A stretch of 64,000 nt of DNA from Mustelus asterias (GCF_964213995.1 NW_027590476.1:1-64000), one strand, 5' to 3'. Shown: positions 12,391 to 59,274, numbered from the stretch's first letter. Translations and numbers: made by a program. Notes: generated by a model from the sequence alone, not told the origin.

Positions 12391-12429
12391 AGTTTTCCTA
12401 CGGCTGTGGGAATGTTTTCTATTACTGTG
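12391..12429 (-). other. Recombination signal sequence, 23-bp spacer (degenerate)
   Basis: CACAGTA-ATAGAAAACATTCCCACAGCCGT-AGGAAAACT directly after YYCAFS. Confidence 0.75.
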
Positions 12430-13159
12430 AGACTGAAAGCGCAGTAATACGCAGCAGAGTCAGTCCACTACAGACCCAATGTATTTAAACTAGTCACTTT
12501 TTTCCCACTCTGGAGTTGCTGCAAAATCTGCTTTATCCTCAGTATCCCAGGAGCTTTTACTCACGATAAATTCCGTTTGTAGATCTGGGAGCTGTCGATA
12601 CCAATCTAAATAAAGTTTAGATTTATTTATTTGTCAGAAGTAATGTTTGCATTAACACTGAAATGAAGTTACTGTGAAATCCCCTCGGTCGCCACACTCC
12701 GGCGGCTGTTCGGGTCAATGCACCTAACCAGGACGTCTTTCAGAATGTGGGAGGAAACCACAGCACGCAGATGAAACCCACGCAGACACAGGGAGAACGT
12801 GCAAACTCCACACAGACAGTGACCCAAGCCAGGAATCAAACCCGCGTCCCTGGTCCTGTGAAGCACTGTGCTACCCTGCCGCCAGTGCCAGCAATAATAG
12901 TTGCTGGCTGTGGCATCAAAGGTGCAGGTCATTGTCACCGCTTCTCCTTGTGCCTTAACATCTGAGGAGCGTCGCTGAGTCACAGAATCTTAGTTAGATC
13001 TGGAAAGAGAAGAAATATAATCACATCTGAACAGTTCAGGCTATAGGGTGCTAAGATTTGAACCGTGCTTGATAAATGCGAGAAAAGATGAAATGTATTT
13101 AATCTCCAAGCACCTGCTCGGAATGATCCGCACACAACCCAGATGCTGAGCAGCCGCAT
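12430..13159 (-). pseudogene. TCR alpha/delta-type V pseudogene (leader 13159-13114; V exon 12999-12430 interrupted by a SINE)
   Basis: Leader MRLLSIWVVCGSFRA|GT; V reads DSVTQRRSSDVKAQGEAVTMTCTFDAT...[SINE]...WYRQLPDLQTEF...KADFA...TDSAAYYCAFS; FR3 deletion and stop. Confidence 0.85.
12610..12885 (-). mobile_element. HE1-related SINE inserted in the V exon
   Basis: CTGTCTGTGTGGAGTTTGCAC core and AATAAAT tail; same subfamily as about 26575-26850 and 28225-28505. Confidence 0.75.
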
Positions 13160-22096: not shown

Positions 22097-22289
22097 GCAC
22101 CCCTGAACCAATCCCCTGCCCATCAATCTAACTCGTTGCAGAGTAAAGCAAAACAGATATCGTGGCTGGAATTTCGAAATGTGAGAGTTGAAGACACCGT
22201 TTCCTATTACGGTGAAGCTCCGTACTGGTATGATGACTGGTCTGGGACTCACAATGGAAGCAACCTGAACAGATATCTGTGCAAAATTA
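22097..22289 (+). pseudogene. Internally deleted V-segment remnant resembling NAR-TCR/IgNAR V, with RSS
   Basis: APLNQSPAHQ (FR1-like) fused to KQISWLEFRNVRVEDTVSYYGEAPYWY (FR3, Cys codon TGT to GGT), then CACAATG-24 bp-GCAAAATTA. Confidence 0.55.
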
Positions 22290-32632: not shown

Positions 32633-33194
32633 AAATTGCCTCCAGTCTTGTTGCTAGGTAGATTTGTTTATGAATATTCCTCATTGATACTGTTAAGAAT
32701 TTGACGTTTGCACCCAACATTCTCTGCCTGAAAAACTTCCCCCACACATCTCCCTTAGACTTTACAGACAAGCGGTCAGTACTGAGGAAACAAATCTTTG
32801 ATTTGCAAGTATAAACACCACCAGATGTTTCCTGTGAATAACTTTGGGCGTTTGGCAACCGGCTGGATTGCTGCTAAATGCTGTGTGGGGCAGATGAGCG
32901 TGAATTGAATTGACCCTGCATTGTTGCAAAATAGACGGATGGTCTCTTTATTCTCTGAAAACGTAATTCAGTTTAGTTTTATCTGCTTGCTAAAGGGTGC
33001 GGAAATTAAATAATTACATTTACAATAGAATCAGCGTTTTTAAAGCAGAGACGATTAACTGCAATATCACCATTAGAAATGGGACATTACAATGAATCTA
33101 TTCAGTCAAACCAATTTCCCTACACCAATAAAAGGTCAATTTTAATAACAATGCATTGTAAATGTCAGAGTCCATTCTGTTGGGCGCATGGAAG

Positions 33195-33275
33195 ATGGGA
33201 CGTGGATCCAATCGCCGCCTCCACCAGGGAATCAAAAGGCTGGAAAGTCGCGCCCTTCAGCCGGGTATTTAAATG
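33195..33275 (+). promoter_or_regulatory. Putative IgH VH promoter
   Basis: GGACGTGG and CCAAT motifs plus TATTTAAAT about 95 bp upstream of the leader ATG; no ATGCAAAT octamer here. Confidence 0.45.
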
Positions 33276-33364
33276 CCGCTCACTGGGACCGGAATACAAC
33301 AGTCCGGGAGCTGGTTTGTTCACTGAGTTCCTGACACAACCATTTCCCCCTAATGACCAGAAGG

Positions 33365-33578
33365 ATGAGGTCGACGATATCTCTCAGTTTGTTGCTGACT
33401 TTCTTATCCGGTGAGCAGATTTATTGTCCAAGCCTCTCACTGTTACTGTCTCATTGTTATTTTATCTATGGAATGTTGCAGAGTCAGCAATCATTTCACC
33501 AGGGTTAATCCTCGTGTTTTTTGATATATTTGTACAGGTGTCCACTCGGAGATTATGTTCGCTCAGCCAAAGGCAGAG
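33365..33578 (+). pseudogene. IgM VH leader exon (33365-33410) and truncated VH exon (33538-33578)
   Basis: MRSTISLSLLLTFLS|GTGAG, then TTTGTACAG|GVHSEIMFAQPKAE, matching the shark IgM leader and FR1 start; sequence then switches to a repeat. Confidence 0.85.
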
Positions 33579-34012
33579 AGGCATCGCTGAGAAGAAACTG
33601 ATAGCCACGTTCCGCACACACCAGGACGGCCTCAACCGGGATATTGGGTTCATGTCACACTATTTGTAACCCGCACAGTTGCCTCGACCTGCAGAGTTTC
33701 ACTGGCTGTCTTGTCTGGAGACAATACACATCTTTTTAGCCTGTCTTGATGCTCTCTCCACTCACATTGTTTTGTTTCTTAAAGACTTGATCAGTTGTAA
33801 GTATTCGCATTCCAACCATTATTCATGTAAATTGAGTTTGTGTCTTTATATGCTCTGTTTGTGAACAGAATTCCCACTCACCTGAAGAAGGGGCTTAGAG
33901 CTCCGAAAGCTTGTGTGGCTTTTGCTACCAAATAAACCTGTTGGACTTTAACCTGGTGTTGTTAAACTTCTTACTGTGTTTACCCCAGTCCAACGCCGGC
34001 ATCTCCACATCA
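33579..34012 (+). mobile_element. Penelope-like element 3' fragment
   Basis: IAEKKLIATFRTHQDGLNRDIGFMSHY* C-terminus; 3' region with hammerhead-like motif and ACCCCAGTCCAACGCCGGCATCTCCACATCA end. Confidence 0.75.
33874..33918 (+). ncRNA. Minimal type I hammerhead ribozyme motif
   Basis: CAC-CTGAAGA-A-GGGGC(TTAGA)GCTCC-GAAA-GC-TT-GTG: core boxes, helix II, helix I CAC/GTG, palindromic AGCT in place of helix III. Confidence 0.6.
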
Positions 34013-34285
34013 CGTTCTCTTTTAATCCAATGAATATATGTCATTCAGATAACAGCAGAATGTATTCTTATTATGCCGGGATAGAAACGGAGAAAGATAT
34101 GTGAGTTTCTATAGGGGACAATCAGTGCAGAAACCTAAACGATAGAAGTAGTAGAATATCAAATTGAAATTTGAAAACGAAGCTGTGAAGATAGGATCAT
34201 AATTGTAGTCGAATTATTAATTCCTTGATTTCTTATTGAACAGAATAACAGAGTGTAATTTGTTCAATCGGTCATTCTTTGCTCG

Positions 34286-34583
34286 CACCGCCATCTCCGC
34301 CTACTCTCTACAGCCTGGTCTCCTGTCAGCAACGCAAGTCCGACGGCTCCATCACCTATGGCTGTTTGGCGATGGGCTACTCTCCAGAAATCACCAGCCT
34401 GACCTGGAAGAAAGAAGGGCAGCCGATCACCACTGGATTTAAGACTTACCCATCAGTCAGAAACCATGATGGGAACCTCCTCCCTGAGCAGCAAGTTAAC
34501 CATCACTGAGTCAGGGGGAGCATGCAGCAAAATTAACTGTGAGGTTCGACACAGCGGATCAGACCATAGCATTGAAATGCAAT
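34286..34583 (+). pseudogene. IgM Cmu1 exon (frameshift, acceptor AG to CG)
   Basis: [15 protein letters not shown]...[38 protein letters not shown]; frameshift near 34470; continues [11 protein letters not shown]...INCEVRH. Confidence 0.9.
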
Positions 34584-34793
34584 GTAAGTATTGAGGATCC
34601 TGGGAAGAACAGAAACACTGTTATTAAACTGTATAGAGCCTTGGTTATAACACATATATAGAAATCTCTAGTCCTACTCCATGAAAAAAACGACTCTGGT
34701 GTCGCCTGACGGCAAATAAATTGTCAAAATATAAGTAATTTTATTTGTTATCAAAACATTCTACAAGAAATGACTAACATGTGTTTCTTGAAG

Positions 34794-35105
34794 GTCCGAC
34801 AGATGACATCCCTCCAACCGTTATGCTCACCGTGAGCTCCAGTGAAGAAATCACAAGCAGCAAAGTTGTAACCATCGACTGTTCAATCGTCGGTTTCTAT
34901 CCAAAGTCAGTGGCGGTGAAATGGCTGAAGAATGGACAACCCATGGATTCAGGAATTATCACCTCTCCCGCCTGCAAAGTGAACGGGAACTCCTCGGCGA
35001 GCATGCGGCTGACAGTCTCCGCTCAATGGTTCAGCAAAGCGGTTTACACCTGCCAGGTCACTCATCAAGAACTCACCCGAATTCGGAACATCACCAGCTC
35101 TTTGG
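34794..35105 (+). pseudogene. IgM Cmu2 exon (open, splice sites intact)
   Basis: [11 protein letters not shown]...[19 protein letters not shown]...YTCQVTH; AG/GT phase 1. Confidence 0.9.
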
Positions 35106-35712
35106 GTAAGAGGCACCGACCATCAACCAATAAATCATTGTGCAGTCCGATGTTAATGAACATCAGGAATTCATTGAAGTTAATCCAAAGCACAGGACAA
35201 CTTCTAATTTACTGCCATGTATTTCATTCTGATTTAAGAACTGCATTCGGATTGTTCAACATTTAGGATTTTATCTGAACAGGAAATAATGTTTCCCTCT
35301 ACTTTGATATCATATAGTGTGTAAGGTGGACTTGACGTCAGCTTTGGCCTGAGGCATCTCAGAATATTTAGAGAGAAAGAGAGAGTGTGCCTGACATCAT
35401 TTTTCAGGTAACAGATTCAGGATAAAGAGTTGAAAAGTGTATCCCGTCTATTCAGTGTGTTTTCCTGAGATCAGGAATTGTATATTTGTATTGGGAATGG
35501 TGCAATGTTTATTCATTAGAATGAACGAGTTTAACGATGAGAATAGTTTTCACAGGCCAAGCTGATATTCCATTGTCTATAGAAGATAAAAGGCGACAAT
35601 TAGAGTTTGATATCTGGAAGTTGATTTATTCCCATTTAGAGAATGAAGGCTGAATAATTCTGTTATGATTCTGAAGAGGGAACTGGGGTTGAATTTCAGT
35701 ATCTATTCACAG

Positions 35713-36021
35713 ATTGTTCCCACTGTACTCAGTCCACAGTGACAATACTGCCACCGCGAATGGAACAGGTGTTACTGGAGGCGACTGTAACATCAACCTG
35801 CGTCATTTCTGATTCTCCTTATGGAGTCAGCGTGTCCTGGATCCCAGAAAAGAAGACTTTGAAAGCAGAGATTGCCGAAAAGCCTGGAGAGGATCCTGAC
35901 AGCGTGCTCAGCAATTTAAACATCTCGACACAAGCCTGGCTGAGTGGGGCTGTGTTTGATTGCGTGGTGAGCCATCAGGATCTGCCGACTCCTTTCAGAA
36001 ATTCCATCCACAAGAAAGAAG
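35713..36021 (+). pseudogene. IgM Cmu3 exon (open, splice sites intact)
   Basis: [24 protein letters not shown]...VSVSW...[20 protein letters not shown]; AG/GT phase 1. Confidence 0.9.
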
Positions 36022-37336
36022 GTGAGTGGAGAGTCATTGTGCCTACTTCCAGTGTAAGTGTCAAGGTGAATATTTAATATTCGGTGCATTTCAGGTCTAC
36101 CAGAATTGGTAATTCCACTAACTAATCACTCTGGGACTGTAGAATTTGTATTGAGGAAATTGAGAAGTAGATGAAAGAAAATGAACTGAAGGGGTTTTTT
36201 TTACATAAAAACTTCCTTGTAAAAAATGACTTTCAACATTTTTTCCCCAAACTTCCTGCAAGTTTACTCTCTCTGGAAGATTTTTGTTCAATTTTGGGTT
36301 TAGGTGGAGTAAGACCATGCACCAGACAACGTAAGAGCAGAAGTAAGCCACTTGGTCCTAGACAAGCCCATTCTGGCATGCAGGAAAATCCTGGTTGATC
36401 TGACATTGTAATACTCCATTCTACTTTCCCGCCTTATCCCCATAACCCTTGATTCCCTGACTGATTACAAACATGTCCATATCAGCCTTGAAAATACTTA
36501 ACGACCCAGCCTCTGCAGCCCTCTGCGATAAATACTTCCTTAGATTCGCTACCATCTGAGAGAGGAAATTCGTCCTCATCTCTCTCAACAATGGGCGACC
36601 CTTTCTCTGAGATTATACACTCAGCTCCTGGACTCTGCCACAAGAGGCAAAAAAACAGTAAGAGGGTTGTTCCTCTGATCGAAGGAAAGATATACTGGCA
36701 TTGGAAACAGTCAAAAGAAAGTCCACTAAGTTCATCACGGGTAAGGGAGGATTTTCTTATGATGAGAGGAGAGATACGTTTGTCCTGTGCTTATTGGACC
36801 TTACTGAGACATGTAGGACTCTCGGGAGTCTTGACACGGTAGATGCTGATAGGTCTCCATTTTCATCTTTTTGATCTGTCCAGTTTCCCAGCTCGGAGCG
36901 GAGATGGATACACTTTTCTCTGGGAAATTAATGGGTTGGATTAGGAAGTTTCAGTAATTTACAGCACAGAAACAGGTCATTTGACCCTACTGCTCTATTT
37001 TTAACCTCCGTACCAGACTCTTCTCATCTTCTCCCAGAGGTTCAAGGGAAACAAATAAATGTAATGTACTTGGATTTCCCAAAGCCTTCAATAAGGAACT
37101 GCACTGAAGGCAATTTAATAAGAAAAAAAACCCTTAGTGCTGGTGGTAGTATATCAGCATGGATAGACAATTGGCTAACTAACAGAAGACAGAGAGTCTG
37201 GATCAGGGTAACATTTCAGGCTGGTAAACTTTAACCAGCGGAGTGCCACCGGTACTATTTCTCTAACATCTGGCTCGCCGTTTCATTGTGTCCGGAATTC
37301 TCCAGTTTATTGACATTTATTCTACATTTTCGGCAG

Positions 37337-37728
37337 ATCCACATCTGTGGGAACCGTCCGTCTCTGTCCTCCTGCCCTCTGCAGAAGAAGTCTCCGCTCA
37401 GAGATTCGTCTCCCTCAGCTACTCAGTGAGACGTTTCTCTCCCCGAGAGATCTTCGTCAAGTAGACCGTCAACGACAAGCCACTGAATCCTGGGAACTAG
37501 AGGAACACCGAGGTGATGGCGAAGATCGGCAATAGCTCCTTCTTCATTTACAGTCTGTTATCCATTGCAACGGAGGAGTGGGCTAGCGGCGCTTCTTACT
37601 CCTGTGTGGTGGGACATGAAGCCATCCCCTTGAAGATCATCAACAGAACGGTTGATAAATCCAGCGATATACCCAGTTTTGTGAACATTTTCCTTGCACT
37701 GATGGACACCGTCAACTCATGTCAATGA
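37337..37728 (+). pseudogene. IgM Cmu4 plus secretory tailpiece (two stops, first Cys to Tyr, internal TM donor GT to AT)
   Basis: [24 protein letters not shown]...TAG at 37462 and 37498...[23 protein letters not shown]...LMDTVNSCQ*; AATAAA near 37756. Confidence 0.92.
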
Positions 37729-38914
37729 GAATCAAACAGTTGCATTCAAAACTTCAATAAAATAATAAATGACGAATGAAAATACCCAATCACTGACCTG
37801 ATTGTTTTCCATTCTTACTTCCGTTTGATCTCTTTGACTTACATCTGATATTCAGAGAGTGTCGGATCCGTCTTGTGGAACCAAAGCTCCCACCTCAGAT
37901 ACATCCTGACTTACAGATAGACTGGAGATCATTCATCACAGGATACTGAGATATAACTTCACCAACCTTCCTCCCGCTGAGCAGAAATCTGACGATTTCC
38001 CATTTCTGATGAACAAACACAGCACATTTAGATCTCTGTGTTCCTGTTTCTTTCTTTGTCCATCTCTTTAACCTTGACGTCAGCTTGAAGCTGTTGCACC
38101 ACACCCACTGGGAACTGAAGCGAGGGTCACAAAGAAACATGGAAGAACAAGCCCCCATCAGAGAGAATGGCAGGGAGTGAAATGATTAACACACTGGACT
38201 CCTACTCACCCAACAAAGAGAGGGGAGGGGCATTAGTTTACTCACTGTCCCCCCACTCTCACAAAAAAGAGATGGGAGCGACATTAGTTAGCCCCATGTA
38301 CCACCATAAAACAAATACAGAGAGGGCGTTGGGGCATTATTTATCCAACTATACTCCCACTTTCTCAATGAAAAGATGAGAACGTTATTATTCAGCCAAC
38401 TGCACCTCAACAGATGGAGCCAAAAGTAAAAATTGCTCCATCACTGAGAACGGGAAGCGATGACTTCACTATCCTTCCTCTCCCCAAGCAGGGAGTTTTA
38501 GAAAGGAAGAGCTGCCTAATGTAAGGATTCAGTTGCCAACTGAAGATATTGACTTCTGGTTTACTTGCCGCAGATTTTGAAATCTCATCATGCTAATCTT
38601 TTTACTGAATATGCATTTATGCAACATAATTTTAATGTGTTTTAACTCTCTTGTTCCTATTAATCATTTGCTGCCTTTGATACATCATATTCCAAATTTA
38701 AACCAATGATTGAATCCTCCCTGGTTTTCACTGTTCTGTCCTGGAGTTTTCTGAGATGCAAAAATGAATTATTTCATTCGGTCAGCTGATGTCACCTTGT
38801 CACTCACATGCAAGAAAATTATACACCAAACATTGAAAATATGCTGCATAATTCGTATTGTCAGGTTAATGATTGCCGGTGAAACTTGGAATACCAGTTA
38901 AAAAATACACATAG

Positions 38915-39895
38915 TGACAATACTGCAGAAAACTGACACAATTACAAGTACACATATAGACATACACATCCACACACATCAACACAAATGCACAAATACA
39001 AACACAAATACACATACTCACATTTATGCTCACAAATGCACAGACACGCAAATGTGTACGCATAGACACACATGCATACACCACACAATCACGTATATCC
39101 ATATGCACATTTATGGATAACACATACAAATACAGACAAACAAATATAGACACAGAAGCACATGTTTGCACAACGCACGCACACATACACAAAATGCATA
39201 CATAAATATGCACAAACGCATTCGCCCACAAAAACACGCACAACACAGGCACCACTGAACACACATACAGAGGAGCAATGGCAGTCACACCAACACACCC
39301 ATACACGCAGATTTAAAAACACAGATTGACATACCCACAAATAAACACATACGAAATTATGCAGATGCACAAATACACACATGGGCACACACAAATACAC
39401 AAATGCTCAAACAGGCACAAAAACAAATACATACACACAAGCAATCAAATTAAATAATCACACACAAACCCGCACACACATACACATACAAACATGCAAG
39501 TGCACGCATACATGCACATACACGAATATTTACACAGACCCACACACATAAAACATACATACATATACACAAATAAGGACAGACACATACACACGTGCAG
39601 AGCCACATAAATCTGCGAACACACATACACTGAAACAAATACATATATATTAGCACACGTTAATGCTGAGAGGAATACAGATATAAAGACAAACAATACC
39701 ACACACATTAACACACATAGCACATTATAATCACATATAAGCACATTAGCAGATTATACACAGGCACATAGATGAACAGAGAGCAAAACATTCACATGAA
39801 AATATGCAGAGGTAAGCATTAACATGCTCATACAGAGCAGAACACCACTACACGCATTAGTGCACATGGAGACACAAACACATATCAACACATAG
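38915..39895. repeat. Degenerate (CA/TA)n low-complexity tract
   Basis: Imperfect CACA/CATA/TACA repeats over about 1 kb. Confidence 0.85.
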
Positions 39896-39899
39896 GGTC

Positions 39900-40278
39900 A
39901 TCGAGTCATAGAGGATTACAGCATGGAAACAGGCCCTTCGGCCCAACTTATCCATGCCGCCCTTTTTTTTAAACCCCGAAGCTCATCCCAATTGCCCGCA
40001 TTTGGCCCATATCCCTCTATACCCATCATACCCATGTAACTATCTAAATGCTTTTTAAAAGACAAAATTGTACCCGCTTCTGTTACTTCTGGCAGCTTGT
40101 TCCAGACACTCACCACACTCTGTGTGAACAAATTTCTCCTCTGAACACTTTTGTATCTCTCCCCTCTCACCTTAAACCTATGCCTTCCAGTTTTAGACTC
40201 CCCTACCTTTGGGAAAATATATTGATTATCTAGCTGATCTATGTCCCTTATTATTTTATAGACCTCTATGAGATCTAG
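39900..40278 (-). mobile_element. CR1 3' fragment
   Basis: DLIEVYKII...FTQSVVSVWNKLPE. Confidence 0.8.
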
Positions 40279-41257
40279 AACATAGTTATAAAGAACTATC
40301 AAGATGTAAATACATACAGTAACGCATTAAGAGACACGCGCACTGACTCAGAGAAATGGAAGTAAACATTAATAGTCTGATAGAAATGTGGAATACAAAA
40401 AGGGGGATCATTACCGAGCAACAGGCACGAACACATGCGCATGTATTACGGGTGGCATTAAGAAATAAGCATAGATTTCACACAATAATGCAGTCATACA
40501 CACAGAATTGCAGAAGAATAAAATATACACACTGTTGAAGACGCACAAATACCCAAATGAACATTCATAGGGAAATGAATACGGACATTAACACTCATAC
40601 ATATTAACTCGGAATCAAAGATTAATGCAGAACACGAGATGCTCATACGCACAGCACAAATATAAAATTTTAAATACAAACGGCAAGCAACTGATTGAAA
40701 TAAAATTCAAACTTGACTATATTAATTGGCACATCCTCTGAAAACTGTCCGTATTATACAATGAACGGACAAATACACAGAAGGGGTGCCCTCACTGAGA
40801 AACTAGTTAATGATATACTAAACATTTCGAACATAACTAAACATAGAGGATGGGAACTCACATCTGAATTCCTAAACAACAAAATTCATAGTTTGCAGAT
40901 CAGTAGCAATCTGCTAAAATAATCATCATTGATCAGTGAACGTTCCGCGATATCAACTATAACATACTTCAATAAGGGATAGTGCCAAACTGTTCGAAAA
41001 TGGACTGATCCTGAAGAAAAATTCTTAAGGACTATCTGACAGATTCTGTCTAAGGAATGCAAATAATGAACAGTTGTGAAGATAGTTACGGAGATCGGTT
41101 ACTGAGTCTCCCGAACTTAACAGTAGATATAGTTTAAAAATTAAATTTGAGAATAAATTAACAGCGTAAGAAAGTGAAAATGTAATATAGAAATAACAAT
41201 AAAATTTCCTGGATCAATTAAGTAAATTAATTATATTTCCTTGTCTACGTCCCCTAG

Positions 41258-41468
41258 ACTCCACAGACCGCATCTGGGTTGAAGACAATGAGGATCATAA
41301 TGGCAACAGATGGACAACCGCTTCCGCGTTCATCGTCCTAATCTTCCTAAGCATTTTCTACAGCATCGCAATCAGAAGGGATTTGAAAAACCCCTAAATG
41401 TTTCCTTGATTAAAAACTTTTTAAATCATCTGCTTCATTATTTTATCTCTCTTTTCCAGCTCAAATGA
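41258..41468 (+). pseudogene. IgM TM1 exon (3' end and donor lost; reads through to stop at 41397) and TM2 (41460-41468)
   Basis: CTAG|DSTDRIWVEDNEDHNGNRWTTASAFIVLIFLSIFYS; then TTCCAG|CTCAAATGA (LK*, compare VK*). Confidence 0.85.
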
Positions 41469-52397: not shown

Positions 52398-52736
52398 CCT
52401 TCTGGTTGCAGTAACTGCGACAATACAAATCTTACCTGCAACAGCCAATCAGCTCCGCCACTCTGCTGCCCTCACCTGGACACTTATCTTCACACGAAGA
52501 TGGAGGGTCCCTTCCGGACGTCCACCTTCTGGTCGCAGTGACTGCGTCGATGCAAATCTCACCTGCAACAGCCAATCAGCTCCGCCGCTCTGCTGCCCTC
52601 ACCTGGAAACTTGCTTCACACAAAGATGGAGGGTGCCTTCCGGACGTCCACCTTCTGGTCGCAATGACAGCGCTGATGCAAATCTTACCTGCAACAACCA
52701 ATCAGTTCCGTCGCTCTGCTGCCCTTACCTGGACGT
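52398..52736. repeat. About 2.7 tandem copies of a 126-127 bp unit
   Basis: Units start CCTTCTGGT at about 52398, 52525 and 52651; each holds CCAATCAG followed by CTCCG/TTCCG. Confidence 0.85.
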
Positions 52737-52750
52737 GATGATCTTTTCAT

Positions 52751-53057
52751 GTCCTTGTGAAGGAGATTCTGTCACCCAGCCGCCCTCATTAGATATAAAG
52801 AAAGAATGAGATGCAGTGATATTGACCAGTACGTATAATACTACAGTGAAGAACTATATATCATGCTGGTACCGACAATACCCAGATACACAGCCCGAGT
52901 TTGTGTTCTTGAAAAACTCCTGGGATTCTGCGGTCAAAGCATATTTTGCCAAAATCCGTTTCTCTGCTGAGCTCCAGACTGAGAATAAATTTACCAGATT
53001 AACAAGCTCTGGGCTGGAGGTGACTGACTCTGCCTTGCATTACTGTGCTATCAGTCT
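52751..53057 (+). pseudogene. TCR alpha/delta-type V pseudogene
   Basis: GPCEGDSVTQPPSLDIKKE*DAVILTST...WYRQYPDTQPEF...RFSAELQT...TDSALHYCAIS; stop, first Cys to Ser, acceptor AG to AT, leader not found. Confidence 0.88.
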
Positions 53058-53096
53058 CACAGTTTAAGCATTCATTCTGATCACCGTACAAGAAAT
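53058..53096 (+). other. RSS, 23-bp spacer (degenerate)
   Basis: CACAGTT-TAAGCATTCATTCTGATCACCGT-ACAAGAAAT. Confidence 0.75.
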
Positions 53097-57100: not shown

Positions 57101-57926
57101 GACCATCCAGGGCAAGCTGCCATTTCCATGGAAAAGAACCCACAACCTTAAACATTCATTCCCTCCACAAGCGATACAAAGTGGCAGCAGTGTGTGTTGG
57201 ATACACACTTGATACACTATCTATTGGATATATTGCAGCAAATCGCCATGGCTCCGTCGGCAGCACCTTCCAAAGCCACAAACCTCACTTCCGAAAAGGA
57301 CAAGAGCAGCAGATGCATGAGAAAAGTATCAGCTGCAAGTTCCCCTGCAAGTCACACCGCATCCTGACTTGGAAATATGTCGCCGACATATTTAGCGGAA
57401 TTCCTGGATATTTTTCCCAAAAGATCTACAGCTGCAACTCACATGGAATGTGATAGTTCATGAAGGTGAACTGTCACCATTTCAATTATAATTACGCCAC
57501 CATTTCAATAATAGTTACGAATGGTCAACAATGTCCGACCTTTCCACCTGCTATGAAACAGCTTGCGTTATTAAATAAAATTAATGCCCAGATAATAAAC
57601 TAATTCATTTCTGGAGAAAAAAATGGAGGGCGGAAAAAATATTACATGTCTGCCCTTCCGAGTCCCAAACACCAAGGAAATGTTTAATCCACAGCACTAA
57701 TTGATCAATCCGGTCCTATCTTTACTGTGAAAATAGTAACTGTGACAGAGCTCGGTATGTTTCCATTCACTGAGAGAAATCTACCACATACCGGTCGCAC
57801 TGCACCATGGAGATAGAGGAAGTGAGGTAAGAGCACCCTGAGACACGACAGTAGATTGTTGAGGGTGGGGTTTGGAACCGGAGTTTAAGCATACCCCACT
57901 CTCATTTTACAGAGCAGACAGCGACA

Positions 57927-58389
57927 ATGATCTGCATCTGGGTTTTGTGGGGTGCATTTCTCGCAGGTAATTTTGAATGTAATGCATTTCATATCTTTAT
58001 CATTTCCCAAACATGGGTAAATTAAATATCAAATAACCACAGTTCATATATTTTCCTGTTTGAATATGTTTTCTTTCCAGATCTATGTCATGCCAATTCT
58101 GTCAATCAGATATTCTCCTCGGTTACAAAGACAGAAGGAGAAGCGGTGTCATTACCCTGTAGCTATGAAACTACGAGGAACAGTTATAGATTATTCTGGT
58201 ATAGGCAAAACTCAGATACACAGCTATCGTATACACTGAGGAAGGACAGCGATGGCGATGAATTTAAAGCAGATTTTGCAGAAAATCGTTTCTCTGCAGA
58301 TCTCCAGACCTCGAAGAAATCCATCAATTTAATCATCTCGGGTCTTCAGTTGACAGACGCTGCCGTGTATTATTGCGCTTTCTGGGACT
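57927..58389 (+). CDS. T-cell receptor alpha/delta-type V gene segment, apparently functional; join(57927..57966,58081..58389)
   Basis: Leader MICIWVLWGAFLA|GT...AG|DLCHANSVNQIFSSVTKTEGEAVSLPCSYETTRNSYRLFWYRQ...RFSADLQTSKKSINLIISGLQLTDAAVYYCAFWD; both Cys and the Trp conserved; no stops. Confidence 0.92.
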
Positions 58390-58428
58390 CACAGTGATAG
58401 AAAGCAGGCTCAACCCTGTACAAAAACT
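58390..58428 (+). other. RSS, 23-bp spacer, near consensus
   Basis: CACAGTG-ATAGAAAGCAGGCTCAACCCTGT-ACAAAAACT. Confidence 0.95.
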
Positions 58429-59274
58429 TCGACAACTGCTGCAGTTGGTAGCTCTGGTCCGCTGGAGGATGTGGGGAATCTCTGTTAGATTCAGTCACAA
58501 TGTGCTTTGTGATGTCAGCCCCTCAAACAAACGACTACAGGAAACCAAATTAACCTCGGATCAAACTGCCAGTCAACAGTTTCCAGGAGTGAGAGAGAAA
58601 GCAAAACTATCGATTCCAATCAGGCCGAGACGCAACACAGTACCGTGTTTGAAGAGGGCCGCTCTCATCGCCAAACTCAATGATCTGCTGTTGTGTGAGA
58701 ACTGTTGGTATCAGACGGATTTCATTGATTTAAACATTGCAACTTGAGTTACAATATAATTACAGGGGAGCGGCAGTGATGATGTTCGGCTAAAGTGTGG
58801 GAATGAAAGTCTGACCTCTTTATTACCACGAATAAAACAAAACGATTGTAAATTTAAAATATTCCAGTATTTGGTAGACATCCTGAAAAACATTGGACTT
58901 TGAGGGTGGTCCATTCTTGAGTCCGTTTTGATGACCACAATCCCTAACTTGTGAGATATGTTGATTCTGTATGCACAGTGCCTGATACAAGAACAATCTC
59001 TGATCAAATATACACTGTCAACTGTCCGCAGTGACAGACTAAACAAAACGGTGTGGGGAGATGAGATTACATTGCATTACATGGCAGGCATTCGAAGTAA
59101 GGACATCAAAGGACAAAGAGTCATTTGCAATGTCACAAGTGTATTTATGAAGTTTCTGAATAGAGGTCAAAATCAAACAATCTAAATCCACAAGTGCTCG
59201 CCTCCTTTTTTGACTCATTGCTGTACTTTGCGCTCACTTCCTCTCACGATGGAGGCTGGATAGTTTTTTATATA

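Follow-up and report, generated by a model that had tools for sequence, protein, structure and literature searches.

How immunoglobulin heavy-chain (IgH) V segments became fixed in T cell receptor (TCR) delta-type loci, such as VH-delta, TAILV and TCR-mu, is a standing question. It is raised again by a 64,000-nucleotide (nt) stretch of DNA from Mustelus asterias (GCF_964213995.1 NW_027590476.1:1-64000; G000:C444:1-64000, on a contig, C444, of 313 kb), hereafter the window, in which the remains of an IgM cluster lie among TCR alpha/delta V segments. An initial annotation had taken these remains for a whole IgM cluster and for a route by which Ig V segments could enter the TCR-delta repertoire while the constant exons decay. 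Is the cluster such a source, or is one to be found elsewhere in the genome? We are fairly confident that the window is a copy of a duplicated IgH/TCR alpha-delta block, that its cluster likely decayed in place, and that a join between an IgM D and a TCR D-delta on another contig, C138, is likely germline. On balance, we also favour a broader reading, in which TCR delta lies outside the single-translocon layout: at least 10 D-J-C-delta loci would be spread across the IgM array, recombination by RAG in the germline would have connected some of them with differing variable modules, C138 would be a heritable chimeric minicluster, and the relic in the window would be debris of the same churn.

The window contains no N in any of its 64,000 nt. 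The relic and the surrounding V segments are composed as follows (RSS, recombination signal sequence; UTR, untranslated region; TM, transmembrane exon):

12429..13159, minus strand: V1, a TCR alpha/delta V pseudogene (leader 13159-13114; V exon from 12999), its exon split by an insertion of about 260 nt, with an in-frame TAG and a degenerate 23-RSS from 12429
22142..22230, plus strand: 3' fragment of a NAR-TCR-type V exon (tblastn, 55% at the amino-acid level, E 2e-5)
33195..33365, plus strand: IgM promoter and 5' UTR, with a TATA-like TATTTAAAT at 33266-33274
33366..33411, plus strand: IgM leader exon, frame open and GT donor preserved
33538..33579, plus strand: stub of the VH exon, 42 nt (GVHSEIMFAQPKAE)
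33580..34013, plus strand: high-copy repeat of 434 nt where the remainder of V, the RSS, the D region, JH and the greater part of the J-C intron were lost
34286..34583, plus strand: Cmu1, acceptor AG changed to CG, frameshifted by a 1-nt insertion near 34463
34794..35105, plus strand: Cmu2, open, both splice sites intact
35713..36021, plus strand: Cmu3, open, both splice sites intact
37337..37728, plus strand: Cmu4 and secretory tail, first Cys replaced by Tyr, TAG at 37462 and 37498
41258..41373, plus strand: TM1, followed by a 48-nt deletion that took the exon end and the splice donor (relative to C770, C71 and C124)
41460..41468, plus strand: TM2 (LK-stop)
52762..53096, plus strand: V2, a TCR alpha/delta V pseudogene (exon 52762-53057; degenerate 23-RSS from 53058), with a TGA and its first Cys lost
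57927..58428, plus strand: V3, an intact TCR alpha/delta V (leader 57927-57966; exon 58081-58389)
58390-58428, plus strand: 23-RSS of V3, CACAGTG/ACAAAAACT

Promoter, leader, Cmu1-4, secretory tail and TM exons thus lie between TCR-type V segments as originally described, with the relic 20 kb from V1, 11.3 kb from V2 and 16.5 kb from V3, and Cmu1-4, the secretory tail, TM1 and TM2 are all present and in order. Their identity is clear: the exons are 86-91% identical in nucleotides to those of an intact IgM cluster at G000:C71:7.06-7.08 Mb, the top Protein Data Bank (PDB) matches of Cmu3 are IgM constant mu (E 1.5e-22), and the 5' UTR matches that preceding the intact IgM VH of C138; no octamer was found in the promoter region (33195..33365). 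The description 'whole', however, does not hold. Behind an intact leader, the V is reduced to 42 nt, and RSS, D and JH have given way to the 434-nt repeat, which replaces 5,664 nt of the sister copy C770 (the remainder of V with its RSS, and JH, included) and after which the J-C intron picks up again at 34014. No RSS with three or fewer mismatches occurs between 19.7 and 58.3 kb of the window. The full set of D1, D2 and JH with its 12/22-23 signals, present in the intact cluster L114, is deleted here, while the copies C447 and C770 have a JH without D. The constant exons no longer form a spliceable open series, given the lost Cmu1 acceptor and frame, the two Cmu4 stops and the missing TM1 donor. 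As the deletion ends within an exon and within the J-C intron and not at an RSS, it is not a RAG event, and we reject RAG as its cause. The repeat itself has a very high copy number (summed depth in Logan contigs in the millions), a sharp boundary at 34012 and no match in Rfam; it may resemble the ends of Penelope-type repeats.

Six copies of the block are assembled, namely the window, C88, C71 (8.27-8.33 Mb), C447, C160 and C770. Near-identical matches to Cmu3, V1 and V3 are found on C88, C71, C447 and C160; C770 matches V1 and V3, its Cmu2-Cmu4 being deleted. With C71, the window forms a single alignment of 98.8% over 37.7 kb that covers the relic and V2 and ends before V3, which falls into a separate block of 97.6%; with C447 it is colinear at 96-99%, without N. 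These two copies were aligned with the window end to end, and the three others share the markers that they still have. Because of this colinearity without N, a chimeric assembly, which the initial annotation had named as a way for its proposal to fail, is unlikely, and it is confirmed that an IgM cluster lies interleaved with TCR alpha/delta V genes. One might argue that the contig measures 313 kb in a heavily duplicated region and that no listed read contig spans the stretch. Yet copies that have diverged by 1-4% show the order V1 - relic - V2 - V3 without N, and white shark, catshark and stingray have interleaving of this kind in a published table (PMC12227049), so that we consider an assembly chimera most improbable.

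The lesions common to subsets of the six assembled copies suggest an order of decay. The V deletion is common to C444, C88 and C71, whereas V and JH are still present in C447, C160 and C770. All three of the latter lack a D in the V-J interval. CATGGGG is the V heptamer of C447 and C770, with which C160 agrees by translation only, and in C447 and C770 two 23-spacer signals face each other. The gap between V and JH in C770 (L005:5260-5680) and C447 (L001:4950-5360) measures about 370 nt. C447 has lost the first V cysteine, and the VH frame of C770 is open. The loss of the Cmu4 Cys, one stop and the TM1 donor deletion are found in five of the six copies; the Cmu1 frameshift and the second Cmu4 stop are found in the window and C71 copies, and C88 has the second stop and has lost 120 nt from the 5' end of Cmu1. 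The cluster would thus first have lost its D segments and V heptamer, as the three V-keeping copies indicate, and then have suffered the loss of the Cmu4 Cys, one stop and the deletion of the TM1 donor; the block would next have been duplicated, and the branch leading to C444, C88 and C71 would finally have lost the region from V to J, with the repeat left at the site. Since the heptamer is dead and D is missing in C447, C160 and C770, the relic family was probably unable to rearrange even before its V was deleted.

This bears directly on the proposal that the relic supplied its VH to the TCR-delta repertoire as its constant exons decayed. IgH-V/TCR-delta chimeras have been published (PMC12227049, PMC6795676), the scaffold of the C71 copy also contains TCR-delta D-J-C units, and the open VH frame of C770 would suit the idea. 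But the window copy is without usable V or RSS, its breakpoints are mid-exon and intronic, the sister copies combine a dead heptamer, facing 23-spacer signals and a missing D with, in C447, the lost V cysteine, and the nearest D-delta lies about 1.15 Mb from the C71 copy. The proposed route is therefore largely refuted for the relic, for which we consider it very unlikely: the relic lost its V and kept its C. Judged by sequence, the relic family cannot donate a VH to TCR delta, because a donor needs an open V and a working 23-RSS, and here the V is deleted or its heptamer reads CATGGGG.

Alternatively, the relic might have been kept for a V-less secreted fragment, with the leader spliced to Cmu2-Cmu3 and ending at the first Cmu4 stop. 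The promoter is in place, leader, Cmu2 and Cmu3 are open, their splice sites are intact and phase-compatible, and V-less IgW transcripts have been reported in sharks (PMC5192425). However, the window and C447 differ in Cmu3 by 12 nt, which change 8 of 93 amino-acid residues, a pattern that would be expected without selection and fits decay; moreover, C770 has dispensed with Cmu2-Cmu4 and C88 with the 5' part of Cmu1. We give such a fragment hardly any credence. The relic is real, V-less and dead, and of a kind already published: TCR alpha/delta-type V exons lie between shark IgH clusters, and in Table S1 of the same report, white shark has entries 'IgM (missing V)' and 'IgM pseudo?' among TCRa/dV, and stingray an entry 'IgM C only' (PMC12227049). 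The interleaving in the window, as posed, is accordingly already known, and the relic alone adds nothing beyond that report.

What does go further is found on the scaffold of the C71 copy and on other contigs. C71 spans 20.4 Mb; its TCR-delta D-J-C units are located at 7.12, 11.02 and 12.25 Mb, and its J-alpha/C-alpha region, with 33 FGxG motifs and a C (18.42 Mb) bearing the tra signature CLATDYF, at 18.37-18.43 Mb. Among the best candidates scored, TCR-type V matches (6.5-17.4 Mb) alternate with Cmu3 matches (5.4-13.5 Mb). The search for TCR D, J and C recommended at the outset thus succeeded on this scaffold, and the V segments are not the orphons that had been feared: the window has three TCR alpha/delta V segments between IgH clusters, and their C71 copy is linked to TCR J and C. 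On the window contig itself, no C-delta was found, and no J among those listed. A second J-alpha-like array, with 88 FGxG motifs in 69 kb, is located at C546:138,800-207,700; as it is 85-92% identical to the C71 array, we rejected it as a haplotig of the latter. Similar small J arrays occur on two large scaffolds (C22:53.06 Mb and C24:52.67 Mb), possibly representing duplicated TCR-beta, or beta and gamma. At C71:7,316,800-7,317,200, the genomic V, D and J of an IgM cluster are apparently joined, and out of frame.

Constant exons of TCR delta are present in 19 copies, all recovered by DNA search (19/19) and by protein search (19 of 112 scored candidates):

C71, 7.138, 11.043 and 12.271 Mb: three C-delta
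C90, C96, C106, C110, C111, C115, C119, C123, C138, C154, C173, C181, C401, C436, C850 and C3311: 16 C-delta on short contigs

No C exon contains a stop, the TM exon (...GLRILFFK..., with Arg and Lys) is open in all 19, and a hinge is listed for 18. Run X5, from another organism, gave a single contig of 503 nt across the C exon. Automatic NCBI names for these proteins read 'alpha chain-like', the closest named proteins being labelled Mustelus asterias, and a PDB search with the exon gave only generic C1-set matches among the best 60. Nonetheless, the genes are delta because their signature, CLASDFSP, fits the trd consensus CLXXXFXP (PMC10322711), because their units contain FGxG J segments and, if unjoined, D segments with a 5' 12-RSS and a 3' 23-RSS, and because NAR-TCR cassettes precede some of them. 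At C71 7.10 Mb and on C173, D-delta is closely preceded on its 5' side by two divergent IgH-like V segments, and on C90, C110 and C111 one such V was seen. When about 5 kb are compared pairwise, the difference is at most 0.22% in 4 of 171 pairs and 0.43-8.8% in the others (the distances of C96, C119 and C850 being approximate, with cut points displaced by as much as a few hundred bases); among the three C71 copies it is 1.3-3.0%, and the two main types are about 8% apart. Nineteen real sequences would require at least 10 loci, since a diploid has at most two alleles per locus, and the three copies on one scaffold together with the 8%-divergent type set a floor of four. The block duplication described above likely multiplied these units as well. 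The canonical place of C-delta, directly 5' of the J-alpha array, is not where it was found: there is none in the 44 kb before the C71 array (18.33-18.374 Mb) or on C546, where gaps could hide one, and the nearest on C71 is that at 12.27 Mb.

On one of these contigs, a TCR-delta unit has an IgM beginning:

G000:C138:217,694-217,728, minus strand: IgM D1 joined to TCR D-delta

Its unjoined counterpart at C71:7.05-7.16 Mb comprises, in order, an intact IgM cluster, a NAR-TCR V, a supporting V, the two divergent IgH-like V segments, D-delta segments, five J and C-delta. Relative to this unit, which it follows colinearly on either side of the join, C138 (966 kb) is short of 55.3 kb (C71:7.06-7.12 Mb), with no N in 54 kb. 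The left end of the join is the last base of a whole IgM D1, at the edge of its 22-RSS heptamer; the right end lies in D-delta, trimmed to 7-8 nt past its 12-RSS, with the 23-RSS of D-delta retained and no added bases. It therefore has the hallmarks of a RAG coding joint, in that both ends are at RSS borders, these are 12/23-compatible and the signals are gone. This fusion of promoter, leader, VH and D to J-delta and C-delta would result if a recombinase-type deletion had paired the 22-RSS of IgM D1 with the 12-RSS of D-delta. Promoter, leader and VH are intact, and the spacer between VH and D is identical (100%, rounded, over 449 nt) to those of IgM clusters on C971, C143, C71 and C140. As the VH is open and of IgH type and its 23-RSS is the same as in intact clusters, it has what the relic family lacks in a donor, and the fused D of 27 nt is open in all three frames. 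This VH would be predicted to join D and J-delta in cis, giving IgHV-TCR-delta chains. The notion that Ig V can pass into TCR delta thus finds support at C138, albeit by another mechanism than that first proposed, with Cmu deleted outright and not decaying.

Is this join part of the germline? From the assembled sequence, we consider this likely. The 1.5 kb following the join differ by at least 3.6% from all 14 other copies compared (6 of them align poorly, at 27-33% with large indels; C436, C96, C119 and C3311 were left out), which means that no unjoined twin is assembled among these 14. Moreover, C138 does not stand alone as a joined unit. In six further units, a TCR V is joined to D-delta: at C71 11.02 Mb (11,023,780) and on C401, C850, C436, C96 and C119. 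These joins show trimming, and C401 also has two P-type bases. C436 and C119, although 3.3% apart, share one junction, and C96 has the same translation; such a junction has been inherited through duplication and cannot be somatic. The joined unit C850 and the unjoined one at C71 12.27 Mb are about 0.06% apart around C-delta, and the join may accordingly have arisen very recently or be polymorphic.

These findings could still be artefacts if most C-delta copies were haplotigs or errors and the C138 join a lymphocyte rearrangement captured in the assembly. Somatic IgH-to-TCR-delta trans-rearrangement is common in sharks (PMC12227049), four C-delta pairs lie within 0.22% of each other, and 16 of the 19 copies are unplaced. 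Against this, a single scaffold has three C-delta that differ by 1.3-3.0%, with a fourth type 8% distant, and the main as well as the divergent type is represented in the Logan contigs of run X2 (summed depths of 85-130 and 40, respectively, which are sums and not copy numbers and serve for presence only). C138 is, moreover, a 966-kb contig without an unjoined twin among the copies compared, and the V-D-delta junction common to diverged copies shows that joins of this kind can be inherited. We therefore judge an artefactual origin unlikely, but far from negligible.

Several points weigh against the reading that we favour. The C138 junction occurs once in the assembly, from which its germline status is inferred. 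C138 matches the C71 unit at 99% upstream and 96% downstream of the join, which implies that the direct parent is unassembled or that the join crossed paralogues. The short contigs carrying 16 of the 19 C-delta may include unpurged haplotypes that inflate the count, and the linkage of the block to D-J-C units on C71 is taken from the scaffold as assembled, with its gaps and orientation. As to the relic, its V-to-J deletion rests on three assembled copies, and none of the listed Logan contig pieces in 32900-36100 crosses either end of the repeat (154,245 further pieces are not in that list).

The TCR-type V segments of the window were assigned by PDB and BLAST matches. The single-V PDB matches of V3 are TCR alpha and V-delta1, and in a sawshark V-J-C model the V is 51% identical to V3 and the C 49% identical to the C-delta found here; a representative search returned 1,854 unnamed Ig-domain matches that assign no class, and other homolog searches gave one match or none. 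For 57800-58500, which contains V3, no RNA data set was listed, which does not bear on its expression. For V2, no leader exon was found in the sequence examined just upstream; at the expected place of leader and intron, directly 5' of V2 (52400-52760), a unit of about 125 nt is repeated three times. The NAR-TCR V fragment is 78% identical in nucleotides to a NAR-type V at about 71.8 kb of C444, and just past the window, at C444:71,600-83,000, two facing NAR-TCR cassettes lie among further TCR V segments.

How does this arrangement compare with known systems? The closest is the antigen-receptor complex (AgRC) of elasmobranchs (Flajnik et al. 2025, PMC12227049), where IgM clusters, including V-less ones, likewise lie among TCRa/dV and NARTCR V near TCR alpha/delta. 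In its Table S1, however, no species has more than a single entry for a TCR-delta constant gene (stingray, catshark), directly 5' of TCR alpha, whereas there are 19 here, one of them with a probably fixed IgM-D/TCR-D join; elsewhere, shark TCR genes are described as translocons (PMC6795676). The combination of an IgM-type VH with TCR-delta D-J-C is known from shark trans-rearrangement and TAILV (PMC12227049, PMC6795676, PMC5192425), but there it is described as a somatic event between loci, whereas the half-event of C138 sits in the assembled genome with Cmu deleted, and the relic has no V at all. Coding-type joints at RSS borders in genomic DNA are familiar from shark IgH clusters with germline VD-J, VD-DJ or VDJ (PMC5192425, PMC6795676); these are joins within one Ig cluster, in contrast to the Ig D joined to a TCR D on C138 and the TCR V joined to D-delta in six units. 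Finally, repeated TCR-delta-related units with IgH-like and germline-joined V are a feature of TCR-mu in marsupials and monotremes, with 5-9 clusters in a separate, unlinked locus (PMC7615758), and of the newt, with a duplicated TRD and pre-joined V (PMC12698447). TCR-mu was called the only TCR with germline-joined V in 2023 (PMC7615758); unlike TCR-mu, the present units are mixed into the IgM array with varied 5' parts (NAR-TCR, IgH-like V, TCR V, IgM VH). Neither a multitude of C-delta genes in a shark nor a fixed join of Ig D to TCR D came up in the literature searched, which did not extend to key nurse-shark papers (Deiss 2019, Ott 2021, Criscitiello 2006, 2010). With novelty claimed only provisionally, the probable germline Ig-D/TCR-D join and the multiplied TCR-delta units thus go beyond the published interleaving.

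If our reading is true, the join of an Ig D to a TCR D, with both parents in one genome, provides a concrete mechanism for the fixation of IgH V in TCR-delta-type loci, namely RAG acting across Ig and TCR signals in germ cells, and C138 would be a snapshot of the origin of VH-delta and TCR-mu-like loci. It also predicts that portions of the fused D should be present in VH-C-delta transcripts from the C138 unit. If real, a large number of working C-delta loci would in turn raise the question of how allelic exclusion is kept in shark gamma-delta T cells.

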